Shown: positions 1,255 through 24,209, counted from the stretch's first letter. The stretch: 31,209 nt of DNA from a virus (IMGVR_UViG_3300029719_000311:1-31209), one strand, 5' to 3'. Translations and numbers: made by a program. The notes: generated by a model not told the origin, from the sequence alone.

Positions 1255-1368
1255 ATAAAACCGGGTGATGCAAAAGTAGCCATTTGATTCACAAGGCCAT
1301 TGACGCATCGCCCGGTTAGTTTTAACCTTGCCCACCGTGATTCACGTTCGTGAACATGTCCTTTCAGG

Positions 1369-1444
1369 GCCGATATAGCTCAGTTGGTAGAGCAGCGCAT
1401 TCGTAATGCGAAGGTCGTAGGTTCGACTCCTATTATCGGCACCA
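1369..1444 (+). tRNA. thrW: tRNA-Thr (anticodon CGT), thrW-like
   Basis: 76-nt sequence GCCGATATAGCTCAGTTGGTAGAGCAGCGCATTCGTAATGCG...GGTTCGACTCCTATTATCGGCACCA with cloverleaf features: acceptor stem GCCGATA/TATCGGC, anticodon loop TTCGTAA, T-loop GGTTCGA, 3' CCA. Confidence 0.95.
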
Positions 1445-1445
1445 T
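1399..1445. repeat. att core, left copy (3' part of thrW, anticodon loop to 3' end)
   Basis: 47 bp identical to 21863..21909; integrase gene starts 14 bp downstream. Confidence 0.85.
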
Positions 1446-1458
1446 TTAAATCAATAAG

Positions 1459-2622
1459 TTACACATCATTAGTACCTTCCTTATTTTTTGACTGGGACAA
1501 ATTTGGGACCGATGGGTTCAGGATCGAGTCTATTTGCCGTGCGTGTTCGGTAAGGTGATTAGGTGCAAGGTGAGCATATCGACGAACCATTTCGATAGAC
1601 TCCCAGCCTCCCATTTCCTGTAACACTGACAACGGGACTCCGGCTTGAACCAGCCAACTTGCCCAGGTGTGTCTCAAGTCGTGAAATCTGAAATCATCAA
1701 TACCAGCCCGTCTCAGCGCCGCTTTCCAGGCTGTGTTTGCGTCATACCGCATCTTCCTTACTGTTGGCGCTTTCGTTCCGTCTGGTTTGGTACAGCTTTC
1801 CTTGTACACAAATACCCAACGGTGATGATTCCCGATTTGTTTTTTCAATACGCGACATGCAGTATCATTCAGCGCAACGCCAATTGCGCGGTTTGATTTA
1901 CTCTCTTCCGGGTTTATCCATGCCACCCGGCGCTGCATATCTATTTGTTGCCATTCAAGGTTGATGATGTTCGAGCGTCTTAAGCCTGTTGCCAGTGCAA
2001 ATTCAACAACAGACTTTAATGGCTCCGGACATTCATCAATCAGCCTTTGTGCTTCATGGGGCTCCAGCCAGCGGATCCGTTTATTCTTTGGTTGAGGCAC
2101 TTTAATAATTGGTGCCTTATCCAGCATTTTCCATTCACGCTCTGCGGCTCTTAGTAGGGCCTTTATAAATGAAAGATGCGTAGCCTTCGTTGCAACGGAC
2201 GCTGGTTTTGGCGTGTATTCTGGAACAGGTTTCCCTTTTTTTCTGCATGCTTCTGCCCTGAGTTTCCAGTTTTCCTCATGACGCCGGTTCGTCATTTTCT
2301 GCATTGCTGAATAAATTTTTGATTCAGTAATGTCTCTTAGTTGCATTCCTGCGAAATGTTGAAGCCAGAATCCGATCCGGCTTTTGTCATCGTCCAGTGA
2401 TTTTTTATGTGCTTTCTCTTCAAGCCACCTGACACACGCTTCCTCGAACGTTATATCAGGTATTTCACCAAGTTTGCTGACCCGCCATGCTTCAGCCTTT
2501 AGCTTGTCATGGAGTTCTGTCGCCTGCCTTTTGTCCTTTGTTCCAAGAGACTGTTTAAATCTTTTACCGTTCGGCAATGTGAAACTGGCGTACCATATTT
2601 CACCTCTGCGGAAGAGTGACAT
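1459..2622 (-). CDS. int: Tyrosine integrase, P22 Int-like (387 aa)
   Basis: Translation [46 protein letters not shown]... ending ...[39 protein letters not shown] with tyrosine-recombinase R..H..R..Y pattern; adjacent to tRNA att site; P22 Int is known to target thrW. Confidence 0.95.
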
Positions 2623-2849
2623 TTTCTTTCCTCTGTTATGCCATCACCCGCGCTCACCTGGACAGTATGCAGCGGAGACTGAAGAGCCGCAATGCAGGCT
2701 TGTCGTGTTGTGAGGTAAGGAGATTTATTCTTAGTGGGATCTTTGCGTGTTGCCTGAAGACGCCCTGTGCGTATCCAGTTAATGGCAGTCGGTCTGGATA
2801 TCTTGAGAAAATGACAGGCCTCATCGAGTGTGAGGCTGTATGGCTCCAT
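2499..2849 (-). CDS. xis: Excisionase (Xis), 116 aa, overlapping the int 5' end
   Basis: Internal ATG of ORF 2499..2933 gives [31 protein letters not shown]... (excisionase-type HTH); position immediately upstream of and overlapping int; start overlaps stop of upstream ORF by 1 nt. Start codon choice uncertain. Confidence 0.65.
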
Positions 2850-3154
2850 TATTTCACCTCTTGCTGTGACATTGTTGAGAAATGGATACCAGCTCGTTGC
2901 TGCCAGACGATCCAACCGAGAGTCATATCCCATGCCATGTATTCGTTATCGCCGTTTTTTGCTCTCCGACGATCTACTAAGTCACCAAAACGCTTTTCCA
3001 TGAATAATTCATAAGCTTCGCGTTCATCTGGTTCTACTTCCAGAGATAGGAGTGCGATTTCATAAGCACGGCGCTCAATATCGTCTCGCACGTCAAGGCT
3101 GCTGATACGCTCTTTAATTTCTTTAATCAGTTCTTTGTCGGTAAAAGTGGTCAT
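2849..3154 (-). CDS. Hypothetical phage early protein (101 aa)
   Basis: ORF translationally coupled to neighbours on both sides (shared boundary bases at 2849 and 3154); acidic helical protein; function unknown. Confidence 0.5.
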   Translation of the reverse strand: MTTFTDKELIKEIKERISSLDVRDDIERRAYEIALLSLEVEPDEREAYELFMEKRFGDLVDRRRAKNGDNEYMAWDMTLGWIVWQQRAGIHFSTMSQQEVK

Positions 3155-3516
3155 TATGCTCCAGCCTCCGGTGCTTTTGGCATTACTGCCCAGTGAGTGA
3201 TATTGACGTTTTCAAGGTCCCCGACCTGAAATGTCCACTGCCATTCTCCGGTTTCTTTTTGTCCCCAGGTGTACCAGAGAGAACGCCAGCCAATTAGCCA
3301 GCCTTCTCCGTTAGCATCGAATAACAAAACACTTTCATTTGCTGGTGGCAGTTCAGTTGACACTGGTATTACTTTGTTTTCCTGTGCTGCACATTTAGCT
3401 TCAAGCGCATCGAATTTACGCACCAGGTATTCAGCATCCGTTTCATTCACTTTCAGATCTCGCGGTACACATCTCCCACGAAGAAACCCTTCCATTTCGA
3501 AAACATTCATGCGCAT
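3154..3516 (-). CDS. Hypothetical phage early protein (120 aa)
   Basis: ORF in the leftward early operon, overlaps HD-domain gene by 10 nt; Trp-rich C-terminus; function unknown. Confidence 0.5.
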   Translation of the reverse strand: MRMNVFEMEGFLRGRCVPRDLKVNETDAEYLVRKFDALEAKCAAQENKVIPVSTELPPANESVLLFDANGEGWLIGWRSLWYTWGQKETGEWQWTFQVGDLENVNITHWAVMPKAPEAGA

Positions 3517-4043
3517 TTGCGTAACTCCGATAATTCGTTAAAGCGTTCCATAAACATCCCGTAGGCATGGCCTGGAGCCAGTGGAATCACGTTGAACATC
3601 TCTGTTGCCGGGATACCTTCCAGCACAGGCCAGAAAGAGCCATCATCAAGCCCGAGATCGCGGCGTTCGGTTGCCAGCATAATGAGATCGGCATATTTCA
3701 CTGGCGTGCTCATAACAGGAGGTAACCCGTATTTCTCACGGATTACGGCGTCTATTTTTTCTTCCATCCGTTTATAGTCAGGAAGAAGTCGTTTCAGTGG
3801 TGCGGGGATGTCCTGGCAATATGCTTCTGTTGCATCATGCATTAAAGCTTCAAAAGCAAATTCCTGCGGCACCAGCTGGCTGCAAAGCACCGCATGTTGG
3901 GCGACACTGTAGAAGTGTGAAAGATGTCCTGCAAAGCGACAGATATTTGAAAGGGAAACCGCGATATCGTTAATAACGATGTCGTCTTTATTTATCCTGT
4001 CATAATAAAAATGCTTCCCGGAAAAAGTTTTAATAAATGACAT
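3507..4043 (-). CDS. HD-domain phosphohydrolase (YfdR-like), about 178 aa
   Basis: HD signature in ...HFYSVAQHAV... and ...ALMHDATEAY...; start chosen at second ATG (MSFIKTF) preceded by GGAGAA; the longer ORF could start at 4070. Confidence 0.7.
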   Translation of the reverse strand: MSFIKTFSGKHFYYDRINKDDIVINDIAVSLSNICRFAGHLSHFYSVAQHAVLCSQLVPQEFAFEALMHDATEAYCQDIPAPLKRLLPDYKRMEEKIDAVIREKYGLPPVMSTPVKYADLIMLATERRDLGLDDGSFWPVLEGIPATEMFNVIPLAPGHAYGMFMERFNELSELRKCA

Positions 4044-4099
4044 TTTGTTCTCCACGTATATGCGCTGCACCGCGCTGAATTCGGGTAAAAGGAAGCCCT

Positions 4100-4587
4100 C
4101 ACCGTCCGGCGATTATTGAGTCAATTACATTTCCATAAATGCCCCCGTAGGGGCGGTTAGTTTCTCCACAAAACAGAGAAGAACACCTGCGGTGGCAGCC
4201 GCCCGGATGGATTGGGTTATGAGCCCGTCGTCCGGTGATGCTCTTCTCTGTTTTGTAAAAAGGACGGTACCAGCCGGAAGCAAGGGTACAAACTGGTACC
4301 GCCAGGACTACACACAGCATAAAGTTGTGGTGCCGGGTGCCTCCCGGTGCCTGGCGAAGGTTGCACACCAGGCGGGTGGGTATCCACAGAAGGTCGACTG
4401 TCAGCCTCAACCTTAACCCGCGTGCGCTGAGCCGCATTCACCACAACGCTAAGGATTCTCTCTGGTTGAAAATACTTAGCTGTTATGTGCCTGCTTTTAG
4501 CCACATCAGGCGAGGTGGACCTAGTTATTCCCCAACAACAAGGATTCGGTTAATCTGGTTATCCCCAACAACGCAAAAGGAAAAGAA
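4100..4587. other. GC-rich non-coding segment with nested inverted repeats and two 16-bp direct repeats; candidate structured RNA or early-left regulatory region
   Basis: Perfect 15-bp inverted repeat ACAAAACAGAGAAGA (4168..4182 / 4242..4256) around a 59-nt GC-rich spacer; GGTACCAG/CTGGTACC inverted repeat (4266..4300); GCCCC..GGGGC hairpin (4141..4155); direct repeats GTTATYCCCCAACAAC at 4524..4540 and 4558..4572; track ORFs here overlap on both strands and lack RBS. Confidence 0.3.
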
Positions 4588-5022
4588 ATGTCCGGTAATA
4601 TCTATACGCTGTACAAATCCCACTGTGAAAATGTTGGAAAGTATCGGGGCATTGAAATCAGTGGGGTAGTGTCATCAGTCGAAATAAGCAAAGTTGAATC
4701 AAGGGCAACATTACTTACTCTTTTGGACCTTGTCTTACATGAGCACCGGAAGAAATTCGGCACTCCCTATAATCAGTTGAATGGGAAAAAGGCTCTGGTT
4801 CACCTTATTCTGATGAAGCATCACTGGATGCCAAAACAGATTAATGAGATGAAATTTGATGAACTTCTTCTTTCAATTCAGGATGAACTCACACTTGATA
4901 AAATAAGCGTAACCGCCCAGAAATTTTTAGATTATCGAGACTGGAGATCACAAATTCATCACTTTGATGATTTTGACGAAAATGAATGGGATCCTAATTT
5001 GTCTGCACAATATCTAAAGTAA
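4588..5022 (+). CDS. Hypothetical protein (144 aa), rightward gene at the sieB/N-equivalent position
   Basis: ATG preceded by AAAGGAAAAG; moderately AT-rich; orientation opposite to surrounding early-left genes; no recognisable motifs. Confidence 0.5.
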   Translation: MSGNIYTLYKSHCENVGKYRGIEISGVVSSVEISKVESRATLLTLLDLVLHEHRKKFGTPYNQLNGKKALVHLILMKHHWMPKQINEMKFDELLLSIQDELTLDKISVTAQKFLDYRDWRSQIHHFDDFDENEWDPNLSAQYLK

Positions 5023-5200
5023 CATCCTGTGATAAAACCGTGATTTCCTGATCCAGTTTTTTTAAGGAGTCTATTGTTTCCTGTCGATAAGACAGCACTT
5101 CACGAAGCTGGTTTATAGCTGCCAGCTTCTTTGTCATCCACTCATAAATTTCCTCATCTGTGTAGCCAGGCGCGACGATTTTGGGTTCTGTTTTGTGCAT
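4994..5200 (-). CDS. Hypothetical small protein (68 aa)
   Basis: Start at internal ATG (MHKTEPKIVAPGYTDEEIYEW...) preceded by AGGAG at 7-nt spacing; convergent with and overlapping the 3' end of the 144-aa gene. Confidence 0.4.
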   Translation of the reverse strand: MHKTEPKIVAPGYTDEEIYEWMTKKLAAINQLREVLSYRQETIDSLKKLDQEITVLSQDVTLDIVQTN

Positions 5201-5397
5201 TTCACATCTCCTCAAGTTATCAGTTACTTGTTGATGGGGACCAGATTGTTAAAGAGCTAAGCGTCCTGTAGGGCGCTTTTTTGTTGCTAACGAATCATCC
5301 TGGACTTCATATGCCCCAGGCGGCTACTTCGTGGGCGTCCTGCCTGTTCGTTGTTTCGCTTGGGTACATTATGTATCTCGAAGGTACATTGTCAAGT

Positions 5398-5422
5398 ATA
5401 AAAAAACCTGCCGAAGCAGGTT
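5398..5422 (-). terminator. Rho-independent terminator downstream of repressor gene
   Basis: Minus-strand hairpin AACCTGC-TTCG-GCAGGTT followed by a 7-T run, 13 bp after the repressor stop. Confidence 0.6.
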
Positions 5423-5434
5423 CATAAACATTGA

Positions 5435-6109
5435 TTAGGCTTTGATTTTGTATCTTCTTGGTTTTCCTGAGAAAATCACTGTACCAATTATAGAGCAATT
5501 ACCGTTGATCTTAATGTAAGGCTCAGGCCAGTTTGGGTTTAACGCTTTGAGATAACGCTGTGTCCCATCTTCTATCAACCTTTTGAAGGTGGTTTCGCCT
5601 GTATCGTGCATCAATGCAATAACGTCGTCACCGTGGCAGGCAGGTACTTCAGGATCGACAAAAATCATGTCTCCCGGGCGGTACTCATCAATCATTGAAT
5701 CACCTATCACCCGCAAGATATAAGTCATTTCCCCACAGGGTACAGGGCAGGGATACGTTTCTGCTGTGCTCAAATCAACCTCAGAATATCCAACTTCTTT
5801 CCATGCTCCGGCCTGTACCCATGATATGACAGGGACTAATGTGATTTGTTTATTAGTGATTGAAACATCAGGTTTTTTTGTGATGTTCGTTGTCTGGTGT
5901 TCTTGATCGAGCCATCCGACAGGCAGGTCGAAACATTTTTCGATGTGTCGTGCCATGCTGTCACCGATATTTTTAGTAGCACCATCTCCCATAAACCTGC
6001 TGGTCTGGGTTGGCTCGCGATCAATCATAGTGGCAAAGGAAGAATTCCCGCCAACACCATCTCTCAGTTTTCTGGCGTTAGACCGCCGGATGTCATGGAT
6101 TGTTTTCAT
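5435..6109 (-). CDS. Phage repressor, cI/C2-like (N-terminal HTH, C-terminal S24 LexA-type peptidase domain)
   Basis: C-terminal ...VIGDSMIDEYRPGDMIFVDPE... (S24 GDSM serine motif) plus a downstream Lys; divergent from cro-like gene with palindromic operators between them. Confidence 0.85.
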   Translation of the reverse strand: MKTIHDIRRSNARKLRDGVGGNSSFATMIDREPTQTSRFMGDGATKNIGDSMARHIEKCFDLPVGWLDQEHQTTNITKKPDVSITNKQITLVPVISWVQAGAWKEVGYSEVDLSTAETYPCPVPCGEMTYILRVIGDSMIDEYRPGDMIFVDPEVPACHGDDVIALMHDTGETTFKRLIEDGTQRYLKALNPNWPEPYIKINGNCSIIGTVIFSGKPRRYKIKA

Positions 6110-6123
6110 AACGAAATTAAAAC

Positions 6124-6194
6124 CCTTGTACCGTTAAGGTACAAGTATCTTGAAGGTTCATTTCAATCATGTAATATGTACACCGGAGGTACAT
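6124..6194. promoter_or_regulatory. OR-like operator region between repressor and cro-like gene
   Basis: 21-bp palindrome CTTGTACC-GTTAA-GGTACAAG (6124..6144) and second dyad ATGTAC-N8-GTACAT (6175..6194) overlapping the cro RBS; related GGTACATT sites downstream of cI at 5364..5395. Confidence 0.45.
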
Positions 6195-6199
6195 ATTGT

Positions 6200-6400
6200 A
6201 TGAAAGCGTATTGGGACTCTTTAACCAAAGAACAGCAGGGCGAGTTGGCCGGAAAAGTTGGCTCAACACCTGGCTACTTACGGCTGGTTTTCAATGGCTA
6301 TAAAAAAGCCAGTTTTGTGCTGGCTAAAAAACTTGAGCAATGCACGTCAGGTGCAATTACGAAATCTGACTTAAGACCGGATATCTATCCGAAAGATTAG
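6200..6400 (+). CDS. Cro-like HTH regulator (66 aa)
   Basis: ATG preceded by GGAGG; MKAYWDSLTKEQQGELAGKVGSTPGYLRLVFNG... HTH-like; divergent from repressor. Confidence 0.7.
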   Translation: MKAYWDSLTKEQQGELAGKVGSTPGYLRLVFNGYKKASFVLAKKLEQCTSGAITKSDLRPDIYPKD

Positions 6401-6431
6401 CAGAACACTTTCAATTTTTAACCACAGAACG

Positions 6432-6995
6432 ATGAGGCTAACCGTGGGTAAGCATCACTGGAAAATAGAAAAACAGCCTGAGTGGTACGTGAAAGCTGTC
6501 AGAAAAACTATCGCGGCGTTGCCGGGTGGTTACGCTGAAGCGGCTGACTGGCTCGATGTAACAGAAAACGCTTTATTCAACCGCCTTCGTGCAGATGGCG
6601 ATCAGATTTTCCCGCTGGGATGGGCAATGGTTTTACAGCGTGCTGGTGGCACTCACTTCATTGCTGATGCTGTGGCGCAGTCTGCAAATGGCGTCTTTGT
6701 GTCTCTTCCTGACGTCGAGGATGTGGACAACGCCGATATCAACCAACGCCTGCTGGAAGTCATTGAACAGATCGGCAGTTATTCAAAACAGATTCGTTCA
6801 GCAATTGAAGACGGTGTAGTGGAACCGCATGAGAAGACAGCAATTAACGATGAGCTGTACCTCTCAATTTCGAAGCTGCAGGAGCATGCAGCACTGGTCT
6901 ACAAAATCTTTTGCGTTTCAGAAAGTAGTGACGCCCGCGAGTGTGCAGCTCCGGGCGCCGTGGCGTGTCGTGACTGTGGAGAAACTAACGCATGA
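6432..6995 (+). CDS. Putative phage regulatory protein (CII/YdaT-like position), 187 aa
   Basis: ORF immediately downstream of cro-like gene; assignment by position only. Confidence 0.4.
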
Positions 6996-7330
6996 ACAGT
7001 TTAACAACACACTACCGTCGCTCGCAACTGATTGCGCTTCCTATACCGGGTGGAAAAGCGAAGGTGGAGTATTGCTATGCAGTAAATGTACCAGGTGACA
7101 GGGAAATTGTAACCCACAGCTTTGCAGAGTGGGCTGTGGGTGATTTCAACCGGCAGAAGGAGACAGTCCTTTGCGACAAGTTAACCGCTGGTTCAAAGAT
7201 CACTACGGAGTGCCCGTCAGAGTCATTCGTTGGGAGCCGGAAACACAACGGGTTATCTACCTCCGTGAAGGCTATGAGCATGAGTGCTTCAGCCCGCTCG
7301 AACAGTTTCGTTGTAAATTCAGGGAAATAG
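6992..7330 (+). CDS. Hypothetical protein, possibly frameshifted (112 aa as called)
   Basis: ATG overlaps upstream stop (ATGA) with GGAGA RBS; N-terminal half protein-like, C-terminal half low-complexity; an alternative frame 7171..7350 reads as a compact protein (see findings). Confidence 0.3.
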
Positions 7331-7339
7331 AGGTCGGTC

Positions 7340-8281
7340 ATGAGCACTAAATTAACCGGCTATGTATGGGATGGTTGCGCTGCGTCAGGCATGAAATTAT
7401 CCAGCGTGGCAATTATGGCCCGCCTGGCTGATTTCAGTAATGACGAAGGTGTGTGCTGGCCATCAATTGAAACCATTGCCCGTCAGATTGGCGCGGGGAT
7501 GAGTACCGTCAGAACGGCTATCGCACGGCTGGAAGCAGAAGGCTGGTTAACGCGTAAGGCGCGTCGCCAGGGTAACCGCAATGCGTCGAATGTTTATCAG
7601 CTTAACGTTGCGAAGCTTCAGGCAGCGGCATTTTCTCAACTGTCAGATTCTGACCCGTCAAAATCTGACGCATCAAAATCTGACCCGTCAAAATTTGATG
7701 CGTCGAAATCTGGCAAAAAAGCGGGTTTTCACCCGTCAGAATCTGGCGGGGATCCGTCAGTAAAATCAAAACATGATCCGTCAGATAAAAAAACTTCTCG
7801 TCCGGACGCTTCGCAACCGGACACGCAGACGGCTGAACAGGAGTTTTTAACTCGCCATCCTGATGCGGTTGTATTCAGCCCTAAAAAGCGCCAGTGGGGA
7901 ACGCAGGATGATTTGACCTGCGCACAGTGGCTCTGGAAAAAAATCATCGCCCTGTACGAGCAGGCCGCCGAATGTGACGGCGAGGTGGTTCGTCCCAAAG
8001 AACCGAACTGGACAGCCTGGGCAAACGAAATTCGCCTGATGTGTGTGCAGGATGGTCGTACTCATAAACAAATCTGCGAGATGTACAGCCGCGTCAGTCG
8101 CGATCCGTTCTGGTGCCGTAACGTGCTCAGCCCGTCGAAGCTGCGGGAAAAATGGGATGAGCTTTCCCTGCGCTTATCGCCGTCCGTCAGCACGTACACC
8201 GAAAAACGCGAAGACCCGTACTTCAAAGCCAGTTACGACAACGTGGACTACAGCCAGATCCCGGCAGGATTCAGGGGGTGA
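7340..8281 (+). CDS. Replication initiation protein (lambda O-like role) with origin iterons inside the gene
   Basis: N-terminal winged-helix-like region; central DPSKSDASKSDPSKFDASKS repeats encoded by tandem 15-bp DNA repeats; position after cro/cII-like genes. Confidence 0.7.
   Translation: MSTKLTGYVWDGCAASGMKLSSVAIMARLADFSNDEGVCWPSIETIARQIGAGMSTVRTAIARLEAEGWLTRKARRQGNRNASNVYQLNVAKLQAAAFSQLSDSDPSKSDASKSDPSKFDASKSGKKAGFHPSESGGDPSVKSKHDPSDKKTSRPDASQPDTQTAEQEFLTRHPDAVVFSPKKRQWGTQDDLTCAQWLWKKIIALYEQAAECDGEVVRPKEPNWTAWANEIRLMCVQDGRTHKQICEMYSRVSRDPFWCRNVLSPSKLREKWDELSLRLSPSVSTYTEKREDPYFKASYDNVDYSQIPAGFRG
7640..7793. repeat. Candidate replication origin iterons (5 tandem 15-bp repeats plus 3 spaced copies) with adjacent A-rich tract
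   Basis: Repeats of CCGTCA(A/G)AATCTGA at 15-bp period 7640..7713, further copies at 7731, 7752 and 7777; within the replication initiator gene. Confidence 0.55.
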
Positions 8282-8772
8282 GCATGAGTCTTTTGAATGA
8301 CGTTCAGAAATTCATTGAAGCCCATCCGGGCTGTACTTCCGGAGATATTGCGGATGCTTTTGCCGGTTACTCACGGCAGCGCGTTCTGCAGTCAGCAAGC
8401 AAGTTACGTCAGAGTGGGCGTGTGGCTCACCGTTGTGAAGGAGATACACGCAGACATTTCCCGCGCCTGACTGAGAGAGCGCAGGAACCGGAACCACAAC
8501 CAGTTCGTGAAACCAGACCTGTGCGCAATTTCTATGTCGGCACTAACGATCCCCGTGTGATTTTGTGCCTGACCCGCCAGGCGGAAGAACTGGAGTCCAG
8601 GGGCTTATACCGTCGTGCTGCAACCGTGTGGATGGCGGCATTCCGTGAAAGCCACTCCCAGCCAGAACGAAACAATTTTCTGGCGCGTCGTGAGCGGTGC
8701 TTACGGAAAAGCAGCAAGCGCGCTGCATCGGGTGAAGAGTGGTATCTGTCAGGGAATTACGTGGGGGCTTAA
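8278..8772 (+). CDS. Hypothetical regulator (winged-helix N-terminus; PerC-like C-terminal region), 164 aa
   Basis: ATGA overlap with upstream gene; C-terminal ...EELESRGLYRRAATVWMAAF... resembles PerC-type prophage regulators from memory; low certainty. Confidence 0.4.
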   Translation: MSMSLLNDVQKFIEAHPGCTSGDIADAFAGYSRQRVLQSASKLRQSGRVAHRCEGDTRRHFPRLTERAQEPEPQPVRETRPVRNFYVGTNDPRVILCLTRQAEELESRGLYRRAATVWMAAFRESHSQPERNNFLARRERCLRKSSKRAASGEEWYLSGNYVGA

Positions 8773-10134: not shown

Positions 10135-10153
10135 TCAAGAGGAGAAACGAAGT

Positions 10154-10951: not shown

Positions 10952-10952
10952 G

Positions 10953-12755: not shown

Positions 12756-12824
12756 AATTGTTATAACCCATATAAGGGCACCAGAAATGGTGCCTTTTTT
12801 ATTGCAGAAAAGCGAGAGGTAATT

Positions 12825-13424: not shown

Positions 13425-13488
13425 TTAGCCAGGTAACACAGTGTTATGACAGCCCGCCGGTTCAGGCGGGCTTTTTTGTGGGGGGAAT

Positions 13489-15903
13489 ATGGCAGTAAAG
13501 ATTTCAGGTGTACTGAAAGACGGCACAGGAAAACCGGTACAGAACTGCACAATCCAGCTGAAAGCAAAACGTAACAGCACCGCGGTGGTGGTGAACACGC
13601 TGGCCTCAGAAAATCCGGATGAAGCCGGGCGTTACAGCATGGACGTTGAGTACGGTCAGTACAGCGTTATTCTGTTGGTGGAAGGGTTCCCGCCGTCACA
13701 TGCCGGGACCATCACCGTGTATGAAGATTCCCGACCCGGTACGCTGAATGATTTTCTCGGTGCCATGACGGAGGATGATGCCCGTCCGGAGGCTCTGCGC
13801 CGTTTTGAACTGATGGTGGAAGAGGTGGCGCGTAACGCGTCCGCGGTGGCACAGAACACGGCAGCCGCGAAGAAGTCAGCCGGCGATGCCGGCACATCTG
13901 CCCGTGAGGCGGCAACGAACGCGAAAGCGTCGGAAACCAGCGCAGAATCCTCAAAAACGGCTGCCGCATCGTCAGCCAGTTCGGCGGCGTCATCGGCATC
14001 ATCGGCGTCTGCTTCAAAAGATGAGGCGACCAGACAAGCGTCAGCAGCGAAGAGCAGCGCCACGACGGCATCCACGAAGGCGACAGAGGCTGCTGGCAGT
14101 GCGACGGCGGCAGCTCAGAGCAAAAGTACGGCAGAATCCGCAGCAACGCGCGCCGAGACAGCAGCAAAACGGGCAGAGGATATTGCATCCGCCGTGGCGC
14201 TTGAGGATGCGAGCACGACGAAAAAGGGGATAGTACAGCTCAGTAGTGCGACTAACAGCACTTCCGAGTCACTGGCGGCAACACCAAAAGCCGTTAAGGC
14301 CGCGTATGACCTGGCTAACGGGAAATACACCGCACAGGATGCAACGACAGCACAGAAAGGGATAATCCAGCTAAGCAGCGCGACCAACAGCACGTCTGAA
14401 ACGCTTGCCGCGACACCAAAGGCAGTAAAAGCAGCCAATGACAATGCTGAGAAACGTCTGCAGAAAGATCAGAACGGTGCGGATATCCCTGGCAAAGATA
14501 CCTTTACGAAAAATATTGGTGCCTGCCGTGCCTTCGGTGGGTCAGTAAGCACAACAACAGGAAACTGGACGACTGCACAGTTTATCGAGTGGCTGGATTC
14601 TCAGGGAGCATTTAACCATCCATACTGGATGTGCAAGGGTTCCTGGTCTTATGGCAATAATAAAATCATTACTGATACTGACTGCGGTAATATTCATCTC
14701 GCCGGAGCTGTCATTGAAGTAATGGGGATAAAGTCAGCGATGACGATCCGCATTACCACACCGACCACCTCCACTGGTGGTGGAACAACTAACGCCCAGT
14801 TTACCTATATCAATCACGGAACAGATTATTCACCTGGCTGGCGAAGGGACTATAACTCCAGAAATAAGCCAACGGCATCAGAGATCGGGGCGTTACCGTC
14901 AGGTGGAACAGCAGTATCATCAGTTAATCTGGCTTCAAAAGGTCGGGTAACCGCGCTGACAGACAATACGCAGGGGGCAGCAGGTCTTGAGTTATACGAG
15001 GTGTATAACAACGGATATCCAACAGCGTATGGAAATATCATTCACCTGAAAGGGATGACAGCCGTTGGCGAAGGTGAGTTACTCATCGGCTGGAGTGGTA
15101 CAAGCGGTGCTCATGCTCCGGCATTTATTCGTTCACGACGGGATACGACCGACGCAAACTGGTCGCCGTGGGCGCAGCTTTACACCTCGGCTCATCCTCC
15201 TGCAGAGTTTTATCCAGTCGGTGCACCAATCCCGTGGCCATCAGATACCGTTCCGTCTGGTTATGCCCTGATGCAGGGGCAGACTTTTGACAAATCTGCA
15301 TACCCGAAACTTGCAGTTGCTTATCCGTCAGGCGTGATCCCTGATATGCGTGGCTGGACGATTAAGGGCAAGCCCGCCAGTGGTCGGGCCGTATTATCTC
15401 AGGAACAGGACGGCATTAAATCGCACACCCACAGCGCCAGCGCATCCAGTACGGATTTGGGGACGAAAACCACATCGTCGTTTGATTACGGAACCAAATC
15501 CACGAATAACACCGGGGCGCATACCCATAGTATTAGCGGGACCGCAAATAGTGCCGGTGCGCACCAACACAAGAGTTCCGGTGCATTTGGTGGCACGAAC
15601 ACGAGCATTTTCCCTAATGGTTATACCGCGATTTCAAATCTAAGCGCGGGGATTATGAGCACAACAAGCGGTAGTGGCCAGACTCGTAATGCAGGGAAGA
15701 CATCATCAGATGGTGCTCATACCCACTCGCTGTCCGGCACTGCTGCAAGCGCAGGCGCACATGCACATACTGTCGGTATTGGTGCTCATACGCACTCCGT
15801 TGCGATTGGTTCACATGGACACACCATCACCGTTAACGCTGCTGGTAACGCGGAAAACACCGTCAAAAACATCGCATTTAACTATATTGTGAGGCTTGCA
15901 TAA
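13489..15903 (+). CDS. stf: Side tail fibre protein Stf
   Basis: N-terminal [30 protein letters not shown]...; Ala/Ser-rich coiled region; duplicated KGI(V/I)[11 protein letters not shown](S/T)[11 protein letters not shown] segments; C-terminal His-rich GAHTHS/GAHAH repeats. Confidence 0.85.
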
Positions 15904-16487
15904 TGGTATTCAGAATGAGTGAACAACCACGGACCATAACAATTTATAATCTGCTGGCCGGAACTAATGAATTTATTGGTGAAGGTGATGCATATATTCC
16001 GCCTCATACAGGTCTGCCAGCAAACAGTACCGATATTGCACCGCCAGATATTCCGGCAGGCTTCGTGGCTGTTTTCAACAGTGATGAGGCATCGTGGCAT
16101 CTCGTTGAAGATCATCGGGGTAAAACGGTTTATGACGTGGCTTCCGGCGACGCGTTATTTATTTCTGAACTCGGTCCGTTACCGGAAAATGTTACCTGGT
16201 TATCGCCGGGAGGGGAATATCAGAAGTGGAACGGCACAGCCTGGGTGAAGGATACGGAAGCAGAAAAACTGTTCCGGATCCGGGAGGCGGAAGAAACAAA
16301 AAACAGCCTGATGCAGGTAGCCAGTGAGCATATAGCGCCGCTTCAGGATGCTGTAGATCTGGAGATCGCAACGGAGGAAGAAAACTCGTTGCTGGAAGCC
16401 TGGAAAAAGTATCGGGTGTTGCTGAACCGTGTTGATACATCAACTGCACCGGATATTGAGTGGCCTGCTGTCCCTGTTATGGAGTAA
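15903..16487 (+). CDS. tfa: Tail fibre assembly protein Tfa
   Basis: TAATG overlap with stf; ...[68 protein letters not shown]... typical Tfa N-terminal region. Confidence 0.8.
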
Positions 16488-16973
16488 TCGTTTTGTGATA
16501 TGCCGCAGACACGTCGTATGCAGAAACGTGCTGCGGCTGGCTGGTGAACTTTCAATAGTGCGAGTATTGAATGATTTCCAGCTGTTATCGATTTTATGTG
16601 TTTTTTGCATGAGGGGATTTCCACCACCTCCCACCGACCATCTAAGACTTTATGCCACTGTCCCTAGGACTGCTATGTACTAGGAGCGGATGTTAAACTC
16701 AGACTCGTTTCAGCTACATTGCGTTTTGAATAATATTCCATCATAATAACTCTTTGAAAAATGTGATCTTTTCATTTATAACACTGATGACTTGCTTATC
16801 TCATTGGGATATCGGAGGAGAATACTTAACTATGACAAGCCCGATTATTATGACACTGGCTATATTATATAGATTGATATTAAAATGTAGGATTAGGTTC
16901 TTGCCAAGGTGTCAAGATTTACAGATAGGTTTAAAACCATATAAATATGTTTTACGGTGAGATACAATACATA

Positions 16974-17000
16974 TTGTAAGGCATAAACGCTTGGTAAAAT
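16974..17000 (+). promoter_or_regulatory. Candidate sigma70 promoter with extended -10 upstream of the large NTPase gene
   Basis: TTGTAA (16974..16979), 15-nt spacer, TGgTAAAAT (16992..17000); 25 bp upstream of the ATG at 17025. Confidence 0.3.
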
Positions 17001-17024
17001 TTTAATTATTGGAAGAAGCTAATC

Positions 17025-20000
17025 ATGGAACCCATATCAATTACAGTGGCAACTTATGTAGCAACTAAACTTATTGATCAATTCATCTCTCAAGAAGGAT
17101 ATGGTTGTATTAAGAAAGCATTATTCCCCCAAAAAAGATATGTGGATAGATTATATCAACTAATTGAAGAGACGGCAATTGAGTTTGAAGAAACATATCC
17201 AGTAGAAAGTGGAGCAATACCATTTTATCATTCCGAACCATTGTTTGAGATGTTGAATGAGCACATCTTTTTTAAAGAGTTCCCTGACAAAGAGATATTA
17301 TTAGACAAGTTCAAAGAATATCCAAGTATCACTCCCCCAACTCAACAACAACTCAGCCTTTTTTATGAGATGTTATCATTAAAAATCAATAATTGTTCGA
17401 AGTTAAAAAAGCTACATATCGAAGAAACGTATAAAGAAAAAATATTCGATATTAATGAAGAGCTCATTCAAGTCAAACTTATTTTACGGTCTATAGATGA
17501 GAAACTAACTTTTCACTTAAGTGATGATTGGTTAAATGAAAAAAATAGTCAAGCAATAGCTGACTTGGGAGGTCGATACACACCCGAACTCAACGTAAAG
17601 CTAGAAATAGCAGAGATATTTGATGGCCTCGGTAGAACTAATGATTTTTCTAAAATATTTTATTCGCATATAGATAGCTTTCTGGTCGCTGGAAAGAAAT
17701 TACATAGTTGCGATGTAATTTCCTCAGAATTATTTGAAATAAACCAGTCCTTAAAAGAAATTTCTGATATATATCAGGAGATTAATTTTTCTAAATTAGA
17801 TGAAATCCCTATAAATAAATTTAATAACTATGTTTCTAGCTGCCAGACAGCTATTGGCGGAGCGGTATCAATATTGTGGGAACTCCGAGAAAAGTCAGAG
17901 CAAGTAGGTGAAACCAAGCATTACAGTGATAAGTATTCATCTACTCTGCGAATGCTTCGGGAATTTGACTATGCGTGCAATGAATTACGTATATTCATTA
18001 ATTCAACAACAGTGAAGTTGGCTAACAACCCATTCTTACTTCTCGAAGGAAAAGCAGGAATTGGTAAGTCTCATTTACTGGCTGATGTGATTAAAAATCG
18101 AATTGCTTCTGGGTATCCTTCACTACTCATACTAGGGCAACAACTTACTTCAGATGAATCTCCATGGTCACAAATCTTCAAGAGATTACAGCTTAAAATC
18201 ACTTCTCGTGAATTCCTAGAAAAACTGAATTTATATGGCAAAAAAACAGGAAAAAGAGTCTTAGTTTTTATTGATGCTATTAATGAAGGTAATGGAAATA
18301 AATTCTGGAATGACAATATTAACAGTTTTGTCGATGAAATCAGATGCTTTGAATGGCTTGGTCTGATAATGTCAGTCAGAACAACATATAGAAATGTAAC
18401 AATTTCACATGAGAATGTTGTGCGAAATAATTTTGAAATTCATGAACATATTGGATTCCAGAACGTTGAGTTGGAAGCGGTTAGTCTATTTTATGATTAT
18501 TACAATATTGAGAGGCCTTCATCTCCTAACCTTAATCCAGAGTTTAAAAATCCTCTATTTCTTAAGTTATTGTGTGAAGGCATTAAGAAAAATGGTTTAA
18601 CCAAAGTGCCTGTTGGATTTAATGGGATTTCAAATATTTTTAACTTTTTAGTTGAAGGGGTAAATAAATCATTAGCATCGCCAAGAAAATATGCATTCGA
18701 TCCCAGTTTTCCTCTTGTTAAAGATGCTCTCAATGAAATCATAAAATTCAAATTAGAGATTGGTCGTAATAGTATTTCACTTAAAGATGCTCACTCAGTG
18801 GTTCAATCTGTAGTTAATGATTATGTTGCTGATAAAACCTTCCTCAGCGCCTTGATTGACGAAGGATTATTGACTAAAGGCATAGTGAGAAATGATGATA
18901 ATTCTACTGAGGAAGTAGTTTATGTGGCTTTTGAAAGGTTTGATGATCATTTAACTGTTAATTTTTTATTAAATGATGTTGAAAATATCGAAAGTGAATT
19001 TAAGCCTGATGGTCGTCTGAAAAAATATTTTCATGATGAATGTGATTTTTATATAAAATCGGGAATAGTAGAGGCGTTGTCTATTCAATTGCCAGAAAGG
19101 TATGAAAAAGAGCTTTATGAATTTCTGCCGGAGTTCAGCAATAATCTTAAATTACTAGAAGCCTTTATTGATAGCTTGATATGGCGCGATATTAAGGCTA
19201 TTGATTTCGAAAAAATTAGACCTTTCATCAATGAACATGTTTTTAAATTTAAAGATAGTTTTGATCATTTCCTCGAGGCAGTGATCTCTATTTCAGGTTT
19301 AGTTGGCCATCCCTTTAATGCTAATTTCTTGCATGATTGGCTAAAAGATTATTCTTTGGCAAATCGAGATTCGTTTTGGACTACAGAACTTAAATATAAA
19401 TATAGTGAAGACTCAGCATTTAGGCATCTAATCGATTGGGCATGGGCCAGAACAGATAAAAGCTTTGTTTCGGATGAGTCAATCGAGCTAGTTGCAACTA
19501 GTTTATGCTGGTTTTTAACTTCTAGTAACCGAGAACTTCGAGATTGCTCAACTAAGGCTTTAGTGAGTTTACTCGAGCCAAGAATTCCTGTATTGAGAAA
19601 AATAATTGATAAGTTTTATGGTGTAAATGATCCTTACGTTTGGGAAAGAATATTTGCAGTTGCATTAGGCTGTACATTGCGAACTGATAATATTAAAGAA
19701 CTAAAATATTTAGCCGAAACTGTTTACCAAAAGGTATTTTGTTCTAAGTATGTGTATCCAAATATATTACTTAGAGATTATGCTAGAGAGATTATTGAAT
19801 TTGCTAATCATCTTGGATTGGAACTTGAAAGCATTGAATTATCCAAGACTAGACCACCCTACAACAGCATTTGGCCTGACAAGATTCCTTCAAAAGAGGA
19901 ACTAGAGTCCCTTTATGATAAAGAACCTTATCGGGAACTCTGGAGCTCTATTATGGAAGATGGTGACTTTTCACGATATACTATTGGAACAAATTATAAT

Positions 20001-21479
20001 CATTCTGATTGGTCTGGTTGCAAGTTTAATGAAACCCCTGTTGACCGTAAGCAAGTTTTTAAAACTTTCAAATGTAAACTAACTGATCAACAAAAAGACT
20101 TGTATGATGCCACAGATCCTTTCATTTATGATGATAAATGCGAAGGAATTAAATTTGGTCGTGTGGTCGGTAGAAAATCACAGGAAGAAATAAAGGCGAG
20201 CAAGAAATTATTTAAGAATTCATTGTCATACGATCTGTTAAGTGAGTTTGAAAATGAAATAGAGCCATACCTGGATCATAATAATAATCTGCTGGAAACT
20301 GATAAACACTTTGATCTTCGACTAGCTCAACAATTTATATTCAATCGTGTTATAGAGCTTGGTTGGGATCCGGAGAAGCATGGTAATTTTGACCAACAAA
20401 TAGGAACTGGACGTGGACGTAGAGAGGCATTCCAAGAACGGATTGGTAAAAAATACCAATGGATTGCTTATTATGAATACATGGCAAGGCTAGCCGATAA
20501 TTTTACTCGTTTTGAAGGTTATGGTGACGAACGAAAGGAAAATCCATACCAAGGGCCATGGGAGCCTTACGTAAGAGATATAGATCCCACTATCTTACTT
20601 AAAGAAACTGGAACGAAAAAAATAAGCAATAAAGAAATGTGGTGGCTTAATGATGAAGTGTTTGATTGGACTTGCTCTAATGAAGACTGGGTTAAAAGTT
20701 CTACTACTATAACTAATTCATATGCTTTTATTGAAGTTAAAGATGATAATGGTGATGAATGGATAGTATTAGAAAGTCATCCATCATGGAAAGAACCAAA
20801 AATTATTGGAAACGATGATTGGGGGCACCCACGAAAAGAGGTTTGGTATCAGATCAGAAGTTATATCGTTAAAGTTGAAGAATTTGAAAATTTTAGATGT
20901 TGGGCAATAGCTCAAGACTTTATGGGCAGGTGGATGCCGGAATGTACTGATAGATACCAATTATTTAATAGGGAGTACTATTGGTCCGAAGCATTTAAGT
21001 CTTTTAAATCAGATTATTATGGTGGATCTGACTGGACTTCGGTAACAGACCGGGAGTCTGGAGCTAAGATAGCTGATGTTAGTGTCACTTCGATTAATTA
21101 TTTGTGGGAAGAGGAGTTCGACAAATCAAAAATAGAAACTTTGAATTTTTTGAAGCCTAGTAACTTAATCTTTGAAAAGATGGGATTAAAAAGTGGGGAA
21201 GTAGAGGGTAGCTTCAATGATGAAAATGGAACTATGGTTTGCTTTGCAGCTGAAGCTGTATATGCTTCAAAGCCGCATCTACTTGTTAAAAAAGAACCAT
21301 TTTTAACAATGTTAAGGGACAATGGTTTTGAAATCGTTTGGACATTATTAGGTGAAAAGGGCGTTATAGGGGGCTCACTCATATCAAGTCATCATTATGG
21401 TCGACAGGAGTTTAGTGGAGCATTTTATTATGAAGACAGTCAGCTAACAGGAAGTCATAAAACTAGCTTTACGAGATAA
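17025..21479 (+). CDS. Large P-loop NTPase with NACHT/STAND-like motifs (1484 aa); candidate antiphage defence protein
   Basis: Walker A GKAGIGKS (18048..18071), Walker B VLVFIDAINEG (18258..18290), downstream IMSVRTT sensor-1-like motif; about 330-aa N-terminal and about 1050-aa C-terminal helical extensions; low GC versus neighbours; located between tfa and attR. Confidence 0.6.
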   Translation: MEPISITVATYVATKLIDQFISQEGYGCIKKALFPQKRYVDRLYQLIEETAIEFEETYPVESGAIPFYHSEPLFEMLNEHIFFKEFPDKEILLDKFKEYPSITPPTQQQLSLFYEMLSLKINNCSKLKKLHIEETYKEKIFDINEELIQVKLILRSIDEKLTFHLSDDWLNEKNSQAIADLGGRYTPELNVKLEIAEIFDGLGRTNDFSKIFYSHIDSFLVAGKKLHSCDVISSELFEINQSLKEISDIYQEINFSKLDEIPINKFNNYVSSCQTAIGGAVSILWELREKSEQVGETKHYSDKYSSTLRMLREFDYACNELRIFINSTTVKLANNPFLLLEGKAGIGKSHLLADVIKNRIASGYPSLLILGQQLTSDESPWSQIFKRLQLKITSREFLEKLNLYGKKTGKRVLVFIDAINEGNGNKFWNDNINSFVDEIRCFEWLGLIMSVRTTYRNVTISHENVVRNNFEIHEHIGFQNVELEAVSLFYDYYNIERPSSPNLNPEFKNPLFLKLLCEGIKKNGLTKVPVGFNGISNIFNFLVEGVNKSLASPRKYAFDPSFPLVKDALNEIIKFKLEIGRNSISLKDAHSVVQSVVNDYVADKTFLSALIDEGLLTKGIVRNDDNSTEEVVYVAFERFDDHLTVNFLLNDVENIESEFKPDGRLKKYFHDECDFYIKSGIVEALSIQLPERYEKELYEFLPEFSNNLKLLEAFIDSLIWRDIKAIDFEKIRPFINEHVFKFKDSFDHFLEAVISISGLVGHPFNANFLHDWLKDYSLANRDSFWTTELKYKYSEDSAFRHLIDWAWARTDKSFVSDESIELVATSLCWFLTSSNRELRDCSTKALVSLLEPRIPVLRKIIDKFYGVNDPYVWERIFAVALGCTLRTDNIKELKYLAETVYQKVFCSKYVYPNILLRDYAREIIEFANHLGLELESIELSKTRPPYNSIWPDKIPSKEELESLYDKEPYRELWSSIMEDGDFSRYTIGTNYNHSDWSGCKFNETPVDRKQVFKTFKCKLTDQQKDLYDATDPFIYDDKCEGIKFGRVVGRKSQEEIKASKKLFKNSLSYDLLSEFENEIEPYLDHNNNLLETDKHFDLRLAQQFIFNRVIELGWDPEKHGNFDQQIGTGRGRREAFQERIGKKYQWIAYYEYMARLADNFTRFEGYGDERKENPYQGPWEPYVRDIDPTILLKETGTKKISNKEMWWLNDEVFDWTCSNEDWVKSSTTITNSYAFIEVKDDNGDEWIVLESHPSWKEPKIIGNDDWGHPRKEVWYQIRSYIVKVEEFENFRCWAIAQDFMGRWMPECTDRYQLFNREYYWSEAFKSFKSDYYGGSDWTSVTDRESGAKIADVSVTSINYLWEEEFDKSKIETLNFLKPSNLIFEKMGLKSGEVEGSFNDENGTMVCFAAEAVYASKPHLLVKKEPFLTMLRDNGFEIVWTLLGEKGVIGGSLISSHHYGRQEFSGAFYYEDSQLTGSHKTSFTR

Positions 21480-21862
21480 AAATGAATCTCAGAGCTGAAT
21501 ATATAAGTAGTATTAGAAACCGGGTTATACTTAAGAAATCAATCTTAAGTGTGGCAGTCGAATGGTAGCTAATATGCTAGCGGCGCTAATGCCTGTTTGT
21601 TGCTCATAACAGGCATTCACTTTAGTTATGGCAGAAAAGTATACATGCTGGGTTGGGAAAGTGTGAAAGAAAGGAAGATTGCTGCGCCGTTTGTCGTCAC
21701 GTTTATCTTCATTGGCTATGCAAGTCGTAATAAAAGGTGGGACAAAACTGAGACACATAAAGCCTCGCAATGGCTTGCAAGGCTTTACATGTTTTGATGT
21801 GGTGGGACGTGTGAGCGCAGTGTTGATGGGGTAATGCTTTGAATTAGAAGCGGATTCTTATA

Positions 21863-21909
21863 ATTCGTAATGCGAAGGTCGTAGGTTCGACTCCTATTAT
21901 CGGCACCAT
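21863..21909. repeat. att core, right copy (attR of element 1 / attL of element 2)
   Basis: 47 bp identical to 1399..1445 (partial thrW 3' end ATTCGTAATGCGAAGGTCGTAGGTTCGACTCCTATTATCGGCACCAT). Confidence 0.9.
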
Positions 21910-22072
21910 CACCTAGTTTTCCCAAGTCAACCCACATCAACAAAATCATTTAAAAACATATATATTACGTTGTTTTCATACGTTTGAGGTCAACCCTTGT
22001 CTCTTGAAATCAACACGCGGTTGGGGGCACAATCAGGGGCATGTTCTGTTCGATCTAGGAAATGTGCCCCCA

Positions 22073-23263
22073 ATGATGCTGAATGCCCGCAAGGTTGAAG
22101 CTGCGAAAGGAAAAGAGAAGAGCTACAAGCTGTTTGATGGAGGTGGCCTATACCTTCAGGTCGAACCTAATGGCTCGCGTTACTGGCGTATGAAATACCG
22201 TTTTGCTGGTAAAGAGAAACGATTGTCCTTTGGTGTTTATCCAACAGTCACACTTGCTGATGCCAGACAAAAACGAGAAGACGCGAAGAAACTACTCGCA
22301 GCAGGTGAAGATCCCGGCGAAGTCAAAAAAGCCAAAAAGCAGGCTTTAAATGCAGCGAGTGAGACACTTAACCCATTCAGAGAAGTGGCGTTAGAGTGGC
22401 ACAAAATGAAATCACCCAAATGGTCTGAGGGCTATGCTTCCGACATCATTGAGGCATTCGAGAAAGACATTTTCCCGCATATTGGGCACAGACCTATAGC
22501 TGATATTCAGCCCCTTGAACTGCTTGAAGTTCTGAGGTTGATAGAAGCTCGAGGCGCTATGGAGAAAGCGAAGAAAGTCCGTCAGCGATGCGGTGAAGTT
22601 TTTCGCTATGCCATCGTAACGGGTAGGGCAATCTACAATCCGGCACCGGATCTTGCCAGTGCGATGCAAGGACATGAAGCAGTCCACTATCCATTCCTCA
22701 AAGCCAACGAACTACCGGAGTTCTTTAATGCCCTTAATTCTTATTCAGGAAGTCCAATTGTATTGTTGGGGGCGCATTTACTTATCCTGACAGGTCTACG
22801 AACTGGAGAACTACGAGCAGGTGAGTGGCGAGAGGTGGATTTTGATAATGCGGTGTGGGAGATCCCAAAAGAACGTATGAAAATGCGTAGGAGCCATATT
22901 GTCCCGTTGTCAAAACAAGCATTATCCCATCTCAAAAGTTTGAAAGAACTAACTGGGAACTACCCGCTGATGTTCCCTGGACGCAACGATCCCAGCAAAT
23001 TTATGAGTGAAGCAAGCATTAATCAGGTGTTTAAACGTATTGGATATGCAGGGCGTGTTACGGGGCATGGTTTCAGGCATACGATGAGTACAATCCTACA
23101 TGAGAAAGGATTTAACAGCGCTTGGATTGAAACCCAGCTTGCTCATTCGGACAAAAACTCTATTCGTGGAATTTATAACCATGCCCAATATCTCGAAGGG
23201 AGAAGAGAAATGATGCAATGGTATGCTAATTATTTATCTGAGCAAATTGGTACTCATAAATGA
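22073..23263 (+). CDS. Tyrosine integrase, P4-type
   Basis: ...KEKSYKLFDGGGLYLQVEPNGSRYWRMKYRFAGKEKRLSFGVYPTVTLADARQKREDAKKLL... N-terminal arm-binding pattern of P4-family integrases; C-terminal ...GHGFRHTMSTILHE... catalytic region; true start probably ATG at 22073/22076 rather than ORF start 22004. Confidence 0.9.
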   Translation: MMLNARKVEAAKGKEKSYKLFDGGGLYLQVEPNGSRYWRMKYRFAGKEKRLSFGVYPTVTLADARQKREDAKKLLAAGEDPGEVKKAKKQALNAASETLNPFREVALEWHKMKSPKWSEGYASDIIEAFEKDIFPHIGHRPIADIQPLELLEVLRLIEARGAMEKAKKVRQRCGEVFRYAIVTGRAIYNPAPDLASAMQGHEAVHYPFLKANELPEFFNALNSYSGSPIVLLGAHLLILTGLRTGELRAGEWREVDFDNAVWEIPKERMKMRRSHIVPLSKQALSHLKSLKELTGNYPLMFPGRNDPSKFMSEASINQVFKRIGYAGRVTGHGFRHTMSTILHEKGFNSAWIETQLAHSDKNSIRGIYNHAQYLEGRREMMQWYANYLSEQIGTHK

Positions 23264-24084: not shown

Positions 24085-24209
24085 ATATTAACAATTGTTG
24101 TGGCTAATGATTTTGAATTTTTTTCATTAGTCACATTTTTCTCATTTATAACCTATGTTTTAATTTTCCGTGTTGAAGCCAATAGACTTAGATAAACGGA
24201 GAATGATGA

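Follow-up and report, generated by a model that had tools for sequence, protein, structure and literature searches.

The viral DNA IMGVR_UViG_3300029719_000311, analysed here over its whole length of 31,209 nucleotides (nt) and referred to below as the window, opens with the core gene proA (1-1254, plus strand), a 417-residue open reading frame (ORF) that is collinear with annotated proA in the relatives L001, L002 and L004. Downstream of it lies the only tRNA gene of the window, an intact thrW (1369-1444, plus strand), which was identified by ARAGORN as tRNA-Thr(CGT), matched the Rfam tRNA family with 71.8 bits, and has its anticodon loop at 1400-1406 and its T-loop at 1422-1428. A repeat search showed that the last 46 nt of this gene plus one further base form an exact 47-nt direct repeat, with both copies on the plus strand at 1399-1445 (copy 1) and 21863-21909 (copy 2), precisely where an earlier reading made without database searches (the sequence-only reading) had placed them. 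About 2e-20 such pairs of 47-mers are expected by chance in 31 kb, and the last 24 nt of thrW did not recur anywhere else in the window when up to three mismatches were allowed. The results below make it very probable that thrW holds a tandem of two unrelated, independently integrated elements, both decayed in place. Element 1 (1446-21862; 20,417 bp), between the two copies, appears to be a prophage remnant, and element 2, which begins at 21910 and extends past the window end at 31209, a P4-like satellite.

Two integration modules at one tRNA gene

Element 1 starts with an integration module of the P22 type. Its integrase gene (int; 1459-2622, minus strand) is full length and encodes a tyrosine recombinase of 387 residues (Pfam Phage_integrase, 3e-48), whose identity to P22 Int is 89.9% over 387/387 residues. 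The stop codon (1459-1461) lies 14 nt from the 3' end of the tRNA. The gene reads toward the tRNA, and the initial proposal that it is transcribed away from it was mistaken; P22 itself has the same layout, with the attP core at 21300-21322 and int at 21353-22516 on the minus strand of its record. The excisionase gene (xis; 2499-2849, minus strand) encodes a protein with an HTH_17 domain and 87% identity to P22 Xis over 116 residues. Similarity to P22 extends through both attachment regions, at about 80% between window 1399-2849 and P22 21293-22743, and at 81% between window 21738-21908 and P22 21168-21338, where positions 21738-21862 (plus strand) form the P22-type P arm of the prophage attR. 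The sequence cggattcttata precedes the middle att copy in every tandem genome examined. A P22-type Int was found at thrW, then, together with Xis and an att block flanked by P22-like arms, and element 1 is identified by its predicted genes as the remnant of a lambdoid prophage with P22-type Int and Xis.

Element 2 has a module of a different kind. A motif scan and the annotation of P4 revealed three P4-type arm repeats at 22020-22073, namely TTGGGGGCACAA, TCAGGGGCATGT and the inverted TTGGGGGCACAT. In the P4 record the attP arm repeats are annotated as TTGGGGGCAY-type 12-mers, one of which overlaps the start of P4 int, and the inverted TTGGGGGCACAT overlaps the start codon of the satellite int in exactly the same manner. 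In a relative, the right arm of the satellite also contains repeats of this type. The satellite int (22073-23263, plus strand; Pfam Arm-DNA-bind_3, Phage_int_M and Phage_integrase) encodes a protein with 43% identity to P4 Int over about 400 residues, and its ATG at 22073 follows copy 2 by 164 nt, as the earlier estimate of about 165 bp had indicated. With its P4-type Int, the arm repeats and the sid, psu and delta genes described below, element 2 is classified from its sequence as a P4-like satellite.

We then compared the segments of thrW that belong to each element. The 47-nt block begins one nt before the anticodon loop and ends at the 3' end of the tRNA. Identity of copy 1 to the native downstream flank extends by a further 17 nt to 1462, as shown by 64 nt that match the attR of SCEC020001, a genome with the prophage alone. 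The attP core given in the P22 record corresponds to window 1406-1428, from the last base of the anticodon loop to the T-loop. The right-end copy of the satellite, by comparison, is 23-24 nt long, GTTCGACTCCTATTATCG(G)CACCA, and starts one nt before the T-loop in four genomes whose satellite has the same DRT type 3 (DRT3) cargo, three of them tandem arrays and one a satellite alone; in VE-T9, whose satellite is a cargo variant, the corresponding copy is 18 nt. P4 is alike in this respect, with a core whose start lies within the T-loop of the tRNA that it targets. In every examined tandem genome with the element order of the window, the middle copy measures 46-47 nt, counted from one nt before the anticodon loop.

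The satellite att block, which runs from the T-loop to the 3' end, is predicted from these limits to be nested in the 47-nt block of the P22 type. Copy 1 would be the core block of the prophage attL. Because of the nesting, copy 2 would be a hybrid that belongs to both elements: taken at full length and with the P22-type arm to its left, it makes up the predicted prophage attR, and its last ~24 nt (21885-21908) with the P4-type repeats on its right are the predicted satellite attL. The proposal that two integrases share one tRNA attachment site thus holds for the gene, thrW, but not for the att segment, which is 47 nt in one case and 23-24 nt in the other. The sublocation classes of att sites within tRNA genes reportedly follow integrase subfamilies, a finding ascribed to Williams in 2002. 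Anticodon-loop and T-stem/T-loop classes of tRNA att sites, and tandem arrays in tRNA genes, are documented in PMC4383910 and bioRxiv 10.1101/2020.11.02.365908, and the putative nested blocks match the known anticodon-centred and T-loop/T-stem classes.

Whether the two elements also occur apart was determined in 5426 complete Escherichia coli genomes. A P22-type int lies at thrW in 1481 of these and the arm of this satellite in 51, thrW is empty in 948, and the junction between prophage attR and satellite int is present in 34. In SCEC020001 the Avs2 prophage stands alone, and its attR directly abuts the core flank, where a LysR fragment precedes paoD. WCHEC025970 has the DRT3 satellite by itself at thrW, and the int, drt3a and drt3b proteins of that satellite have the same accessions as those of DETEC-E223. 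A synthetic junction made of window 1250-1445 and 21910-22110 matched WCHEC025970 at 100%; as judged from the sequence, this is the state expected before integration of the prophage or after its precise excision. DETEC-E223 has a full-length version of the tandem in the window, with 99.8-99.97% identity to window positions 15211-31209 apart from the satellite deletion described below. The same satellite lies beside quite different P22-Int prophages in QDFD216 and MLI105, and DX6 has a related pair of elements. VE-T9 has the reversed order, in which thrW is followed by a closely related satellite with other cargo and then by the prophage; the reverse-order junction was found in at least one genome, a lower bound, as the query included cargo-specific DNA.

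These genomes bear directly on the possibility that the two repeats bound one composite element that moves as a unit. Both elements are indeed adjacent in the order of the window in the 34 genomes with the junction. Each is nevertheless the sole element at thrW in some genomes, where the junctions are those predicted for independent integration; the same satellite occurs beside unrelated prophages, the reverse order exists, and each element has its own integrase, arm sequences and att fragment length. The genomes with only one element exclude the case of a single composite between the repeats, and we give that explanation practically no credence. Two distinct elements in tandem at thrW, with a middle tRNA fragment that is the end of both, are borne out by the single-element and tandem genomes, and the census numbers agree with the view of thrW as a serially reused hotspot. 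The comparison with related genomes that the sequence-only reading had called for thus yielded every state: empty site, prophage alone, satellite alone, tandem, other neighbours and reverse order.

Two further observations concern the right end of the satellite. The right att copy is one G short (ATCGCACCA) at 33176-33198 of L003 (DETEC-E223), 31173-31195 of L008 and 29062-29084 of L009, and it is perfect in MLI105 (L010, 26403-26426). The 17 nt past this copy (TTAAAATCAAAGAGTTAC) have three differences from the flank of satellite-free genomes. The altered copy and the three differences in its 17-nt flank suggest that the DRT3 island may spread together with its flank through homologous recombination.

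Decay and cargo of the two elements

Element 1 is much reduced. The ORF at 10953-12755 (plus strand; Pfam DUF968, Phage_Tail_Tip and Ig_GpJ_C) is the scar of a deletion, an in-frame fusion that encodes a 600-residue chimera of the DUF968 N-terminus and the receptor-binding C-terminus of the tail-tip protein J. At the junction, 11697/11698, the sequence passes from the middle of the DUF968 gene to the C-terminal part of J. Relative to DETEC-E223 the deletion measures 21,912 bp (the alignment jumps from 22428 to 44341), and Q, the lysis, terminase, portal, capsid and tail-shaft genes and the N-terminal part of J have gone with it. The late genes left are the J C-terminus and the lambda-like genes for lom, side tail fibre and tail fibre assembly (12825-16487, plus strand), which were recognised by Pfam (Ail_Lom, 4e-119; phage_tail_N; Collar) and by the annotation of relatives. 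A match to the small RNA family IS009 of Rfam (16246-16444, plus strand; 222.7 bits, gathering threshold 117) lies inside the tail fibre assembly gene. Of the genes that a functional temperate phage of the lambdoid kind needs, for late regulation, lysis, terminase, portal, capsid and tail, element 1 thus retains only these tail parts. A P22-integrase element at thrW is present, as the original label of prophage had it, but what the label covers is only a 20.4-kb remnant that has lost Q and the genes for lysis, terminase, head and tail shaft.

The DUF968/J junction was found in 0 of the 5426 genomes, as would be expected if the short prophage were an artefact of assembly, arising where the contig of a full-length prophage was collapsed or wrongly joined. 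We regard such an artefact as very unlikely. The junction gives a clean in-frame ORF with no ambiguous bases, and many relatives have other internal deletions of the same prophage; among the matches listed, their proA-to-attR spans are 15.6-33.7 kb, compared with about 47 kb in DETEC-E223. MLI105, moreover, independently confirms the deletion in the satellite.

Alignments to VE-T9 and DETEC-E223 located this second deletion, of 3168 bp, at a junction with a 5-nt overlap (25456-25460). It took DUF5375 and all of the alpha primase gene except the last ~100 nt, and a tblastn search with P4 alpha gave no match in the window, so that the primase of a P4-like satellite is missing. MLI105 alone has this junction, with 521 bp matching at 100%. 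Since MLI105 is a complete genome with the identical junction, the deletion is judged to be real and inherited.

The remaining satellite genes follow the P4 pattern in part. Downstream of int lies a conserved gene for 274 residues (23260-24084, plus strand; 34% GC), with an N-terminal MerR/excisionase-like winged helix. We considered this ORF as additional defence cargo and rejected it, as it had no family and no whole-protein fold match beyond the N-terminal MerR/Xis-like winged helix. It is followed by a gene for an AlpA/Vis-like helix-turn-helix protein (24210-24500, plus strand), a candidate excisionase or regulator, whose match to Pfam Phage_AlpA (20.6 bits) is just below the cut-off of 21 bits. 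A stretch similar to the P4 immunity region lies downstream of it, before the sid-like gene; P4 epsilon had no match in the window. In Rfam at the gathering threshold, the window gave only the tRNA and IS009 and no satellite RNA. The sid-like gene (25959-26702, plus strand) has a Psu-family Pfam match and 24% identity to P4 Sid, psu (26699-27250, plus strand) was identified by Pfam Psu (1e-44) and by blastp to P4 Psu, and delta/ogr (27256-27528, plus strand) by Pfam Ogr_Delta (7.5e-16) and by blastp to P4 Delta. The members of the P4-like core that are clearly recognised in the window are the integrase with its arm repeats, psu, delta and sid. A candidate cos of the P2/P4 type (27726-27760, plus strand) was proposed from a weak blastn match of 27726-27748 to the P4 cos junction (E 0.47). 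Similarity to the VE-T9 satellite ends at 27757, just past this cos-like sequence.

P4 Sid, Psu and Delta act on the capsid and late genes of P2-type phages. This is relevant to the idea that the neighbouring prophage is the helper of the satellite and that the tandem position is functional, for which physical adjacency is the one argument. The Sid, Psu and Delta of the satellite, identified by Pfam and blastp, target P2-type genes, and the neighbour is lambdoid; in the window it is without any capsid, terminase or late-regulator genes, and the satellite also occurs alone or with other neighbours. We find a helper relationship scarcely credible.

Each element has defence cargo, as had been noticed at the outset from the sequence. 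In element 1 it is Avs2 (17025-21479, plus strand), a STAND NTPase gene beside attR that was identified by PADLOC (E=0, 1752 bits) and by the NCBIfam equivalog NF041813 (1689 bits, cut-off 1000). The segment has 34% GC against 50% in the backbone. The protein matches the solved EcAvs2 (PDB 9O4E chain A) over residues 1-1484 with 3443 bits. EcAvs2 is a STAND NTPase that binds the large terminase of phages and then kills the cell (PMC13601566). The 125 nt to the left of copy 2, taken with the copy, share 81% identity with the P22 attP region, and Avs2 thus occupies the slot beside attR that holds gtrABC in P22. On the strength of the full-length match to 9O4E, the structurally studied EcAvs2 is identified as predicted cargo of thrW lambdoid prophages, in the gtrABC slot of P22 and the Sf phages. 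Among the matches listed, many Avs2-bearing relatives at thrW are internally deleted. Selection by the terminase sensor Avs2 for loss of the resident terminase was considered and set aside, as DETEC-E223 keeps the full terminase and the short prophages listed are a biased sample.

In element 2 the cargo is a DRT3 cassette of adjacent Drt3a (UG3) and Drt3b (UG8), with 29-31% GC. drt3a (27923-29200, plus strand) was identified by PADLOC Drt3a (6e-131) and NF041747 (362 bits, cut-off 200), and drt3b (29191-31209, plus strand) by PADLOC Drt3b (2e-203) and NF041748 (613 bits, cut-off 350). The cassette falls in the psu-to-att hotspot of P4-like satellites, which Rousset et al. (2022, PMC9122126) describe as adjacent to cos, in the interval from psu to int. 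DRT3 synthesises poly(dTdG)/poly(dCdA) double-stranded DNA. It also requires a non-coding RNA (ncRNA), which is encoded downstream of drt3b (bioRxiv 10.64898/2026.05.04.722794). The window ends at the drt3b stop codon, and the DRT3 ncRNA and the right end of the satellite lie outside it, which leaves the defence system incomplete within the window. In DETEC-E223 a spacer of 394 nt separates drt3b from the third att copy (L003, 32784-33176) and contains ACACAC at about 33020, which would fit the published template ncRNA of DRT3. An interplay of DRT3, which is triggered by phage Gam and RecBCD inhibition, with the neighbouring prophage was dropped as a candidate, as none of the annotated early genes was seen to be a homologue of Gam or Abc2.

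The early region of element 1 (2849-10951) was defined by DNA identity to phages, by Pfam and PADLOC, and by the annotation of relatives; its DNA is 95-98% identical to Shigella phages SfIV, SfII and SfV and to several E. coli lambdoid phages. Among its genes are those for a repressor of the S24/LexA type (5435-6109, minus strand), a cro-like product (6200-6400), an O-like replication protein (7340-8281) and a Dam-type methylase (8772-9425), as well as RusA and KilA-N. Within the O-like gene lie iterons (7628-7750), five overlapping 30-nt copies of the TCAAAATCTGAC type at a spacing of 15 nt, with a sixth copy 33 nt beyond the first five; these are presumably the origin of the prophage. A gene of the ECs1072 family (4588-5022), on the strand opposite to the early-left operon and in a GC dip of about 41%, looks like a moron insertion.

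Integration history, excision and present role

We propose that the two elements integrated independently at thrW by site-specific recombination. Each integration would rebuild the tRNA and leave a 3' fragment open to re-targeting, and a rebuilt tRNA with a targetable leftover fragment would account for the serial reuse of thrW. Decay would have come after integration, with the loss of 21.9 kb from the prophage and of 3.2 kb from the satellite. The satellite could presumably enter any att copy, and the phage only those copies that keep the anticodon-loop part. If the phage needs that part, the order in VE-T9 means that a prophage was already in place when the satellite inserted into its intact tRNA. 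The order of elements in the window is compatible with either sequence of integration.

Both elements have an intact int, and the prophage xis and both att copies are intact within the window; each element should on this account still be able to excise alone. The single-element genomes are, by their junction sequences, the expected products of separate excision or of separate integration, and they fit the part of the earlier proposal that had the middle copy allow separate excision. The other part, joint excision, found no support. In its strongest form it states that the array is active and that the P4-type Int recombines the intact thrW with the far copy of the satellite through the nested 24-nt block (copy 1 with the third copy), which would yield a circle of about 30 kb that contains Avs2, DRT3 and one P2-type cos and is mobilised by a P2-like helper. 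The last ~24 nt are indeed common to all copies, neither int gene is damaged, and 20.4 kb plus about 9.7 kb comes arithmetically close to the genome size of P2. Accretion and co-mobilisation of tandem elements are also known for some pairs of integrative and conjugative elements and cis-mobilizable elements, which provide a precedent. If it were true, the circle would be near the head capacity of P2, and joint transfer of Avs2 and DRT3 by a P2-like helper would become possible.

The arms, however, argue otherwise. The right flank of copy 1 consists of P22-type arm DNA only, and P4-type repeats occur only to the right of copy 2. By the paradigm of lambda and P4 Int, neither Int would have matched arms for recombination of copy 1 with copy 3, and without a matched arm pair for either enzyme joint excision becomes unlikely. 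The satellite is also without alpha, its cos is a weak candidate, and a comparative signature of joint movement was not seen among the genomes compared. We consider an active, jointly excising array very improbable, and recombination of this kind by the P4-type Int equally so. A milder version, in which the order of the array records its history of integration because the phage enters only copies with the anticodon loop, might apply.

Several points weigh against the reading of two independent, decayed elements that we favour. The prophage deletion junction at 11697/11698 is unique to the window, which leaves formal room for an assembly error there. The crossover positions were taken from the limits of identity blocks, and given a P22 core at 1406-1428, an overlap of a few nt between the P22 and satellite cores is possible. 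The evidence for cos is weak, with the canonical P2/P4 cos 19-mer absent from the window at up to three mismatches. The right end of the satellite, with the third att copy and the DRT3 ncRNA, lies beyond the window and was deduced from relatives that include MLI105, which has the same deletion.

On two independently integrated and decayed elements, the present role of the region can be considered. The prophage has neither virion nor lysis genes and the satellite has no primase, and neither element is therefore predicted to be able to propagate. The host would as a consequence effectively keep Avs2 and DRT3 as fixed defence genes. Most likely, the region now serves as a fixed defence locus derived from two decaying mobile elements.

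Relation to known tandem arrays

The arrangement is an ordinary and already known one, as all of its components have been characterised and the same array is annotated in public genomes; beyond careful annotation its importance is small. The window serves as a worked example of how a tRNA gene gathers mobile elements serially. Its elements decay while Avs2 and DRT3 stay intact, by which an integration hotspot would turn into a defence island, and the nested att blocks of two integrase families would constrain the points of insertion within the array.

The closest experimental parallel is in Shigella flexneri, where SfI was shown to integrate at the attL of resident SfX in thrW, giving a tandem (PMC3306764). 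The two cases share the tRNA gene beside proA, the P22-type Int family, and an incoming element that uses the att copy of the resident, which results in three att copies. The SfI/SfX tandem consists of complete phages with the same integrase type and gtr cargo, whereas the array in the window has unrelated integrases, nested att blocks, deletions in both elements, and anti-phage defence cargo.

Taken singly, each element resembles a known type. Element 2 shares with P4-like satellites (Rousset et al. 2022, PMC9122126; Moura de Sousa and Rocha) the P4-type Int, the TTGGGGGCAY arm repeats, sid, psu and delta, and a variable low-GC defence cassette that starts just past a cos-like sequence. It differs from them in that the alpha primase is deleted and that the gene order is sid-psu-delta, not sid-delta-psu; from P4 itself it differs in its target, thrW rather than leuX, and in an Int that is only 43% identical. 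Element 1 resembles the int-xis-attP module of P22 and of SfII, SfIV and SfV, with Int 90% and Xis 87% identical to those of P22, an att block formed by the 3' 46-47 nt of thrW, P22-like arms, and a cargo slot across attP from int. It differs from P22 in its virion module, which was lambda-like and is now mostly deleted, and in its cargo, which is Avs2 and not gtrABC.

As a whole, the array resembles the tandem tRNA-gene island arrays of Islander (PMC4383910), whose members are each equipped with a separate integrase and a separate tRNA gene (tDNA) fragment in the orientation of the tRNA. The prophage has both within the window. The satellite has its integrase in the window, and its fragment would lie beyond 31209; a 23-24-nt copy is present in 4/4 DRT3-satellite relatives. 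We see no essential difference from such arrays; what the window adds is the combination of the anticodon-centred and the T-loop/T-stem classes in one array.

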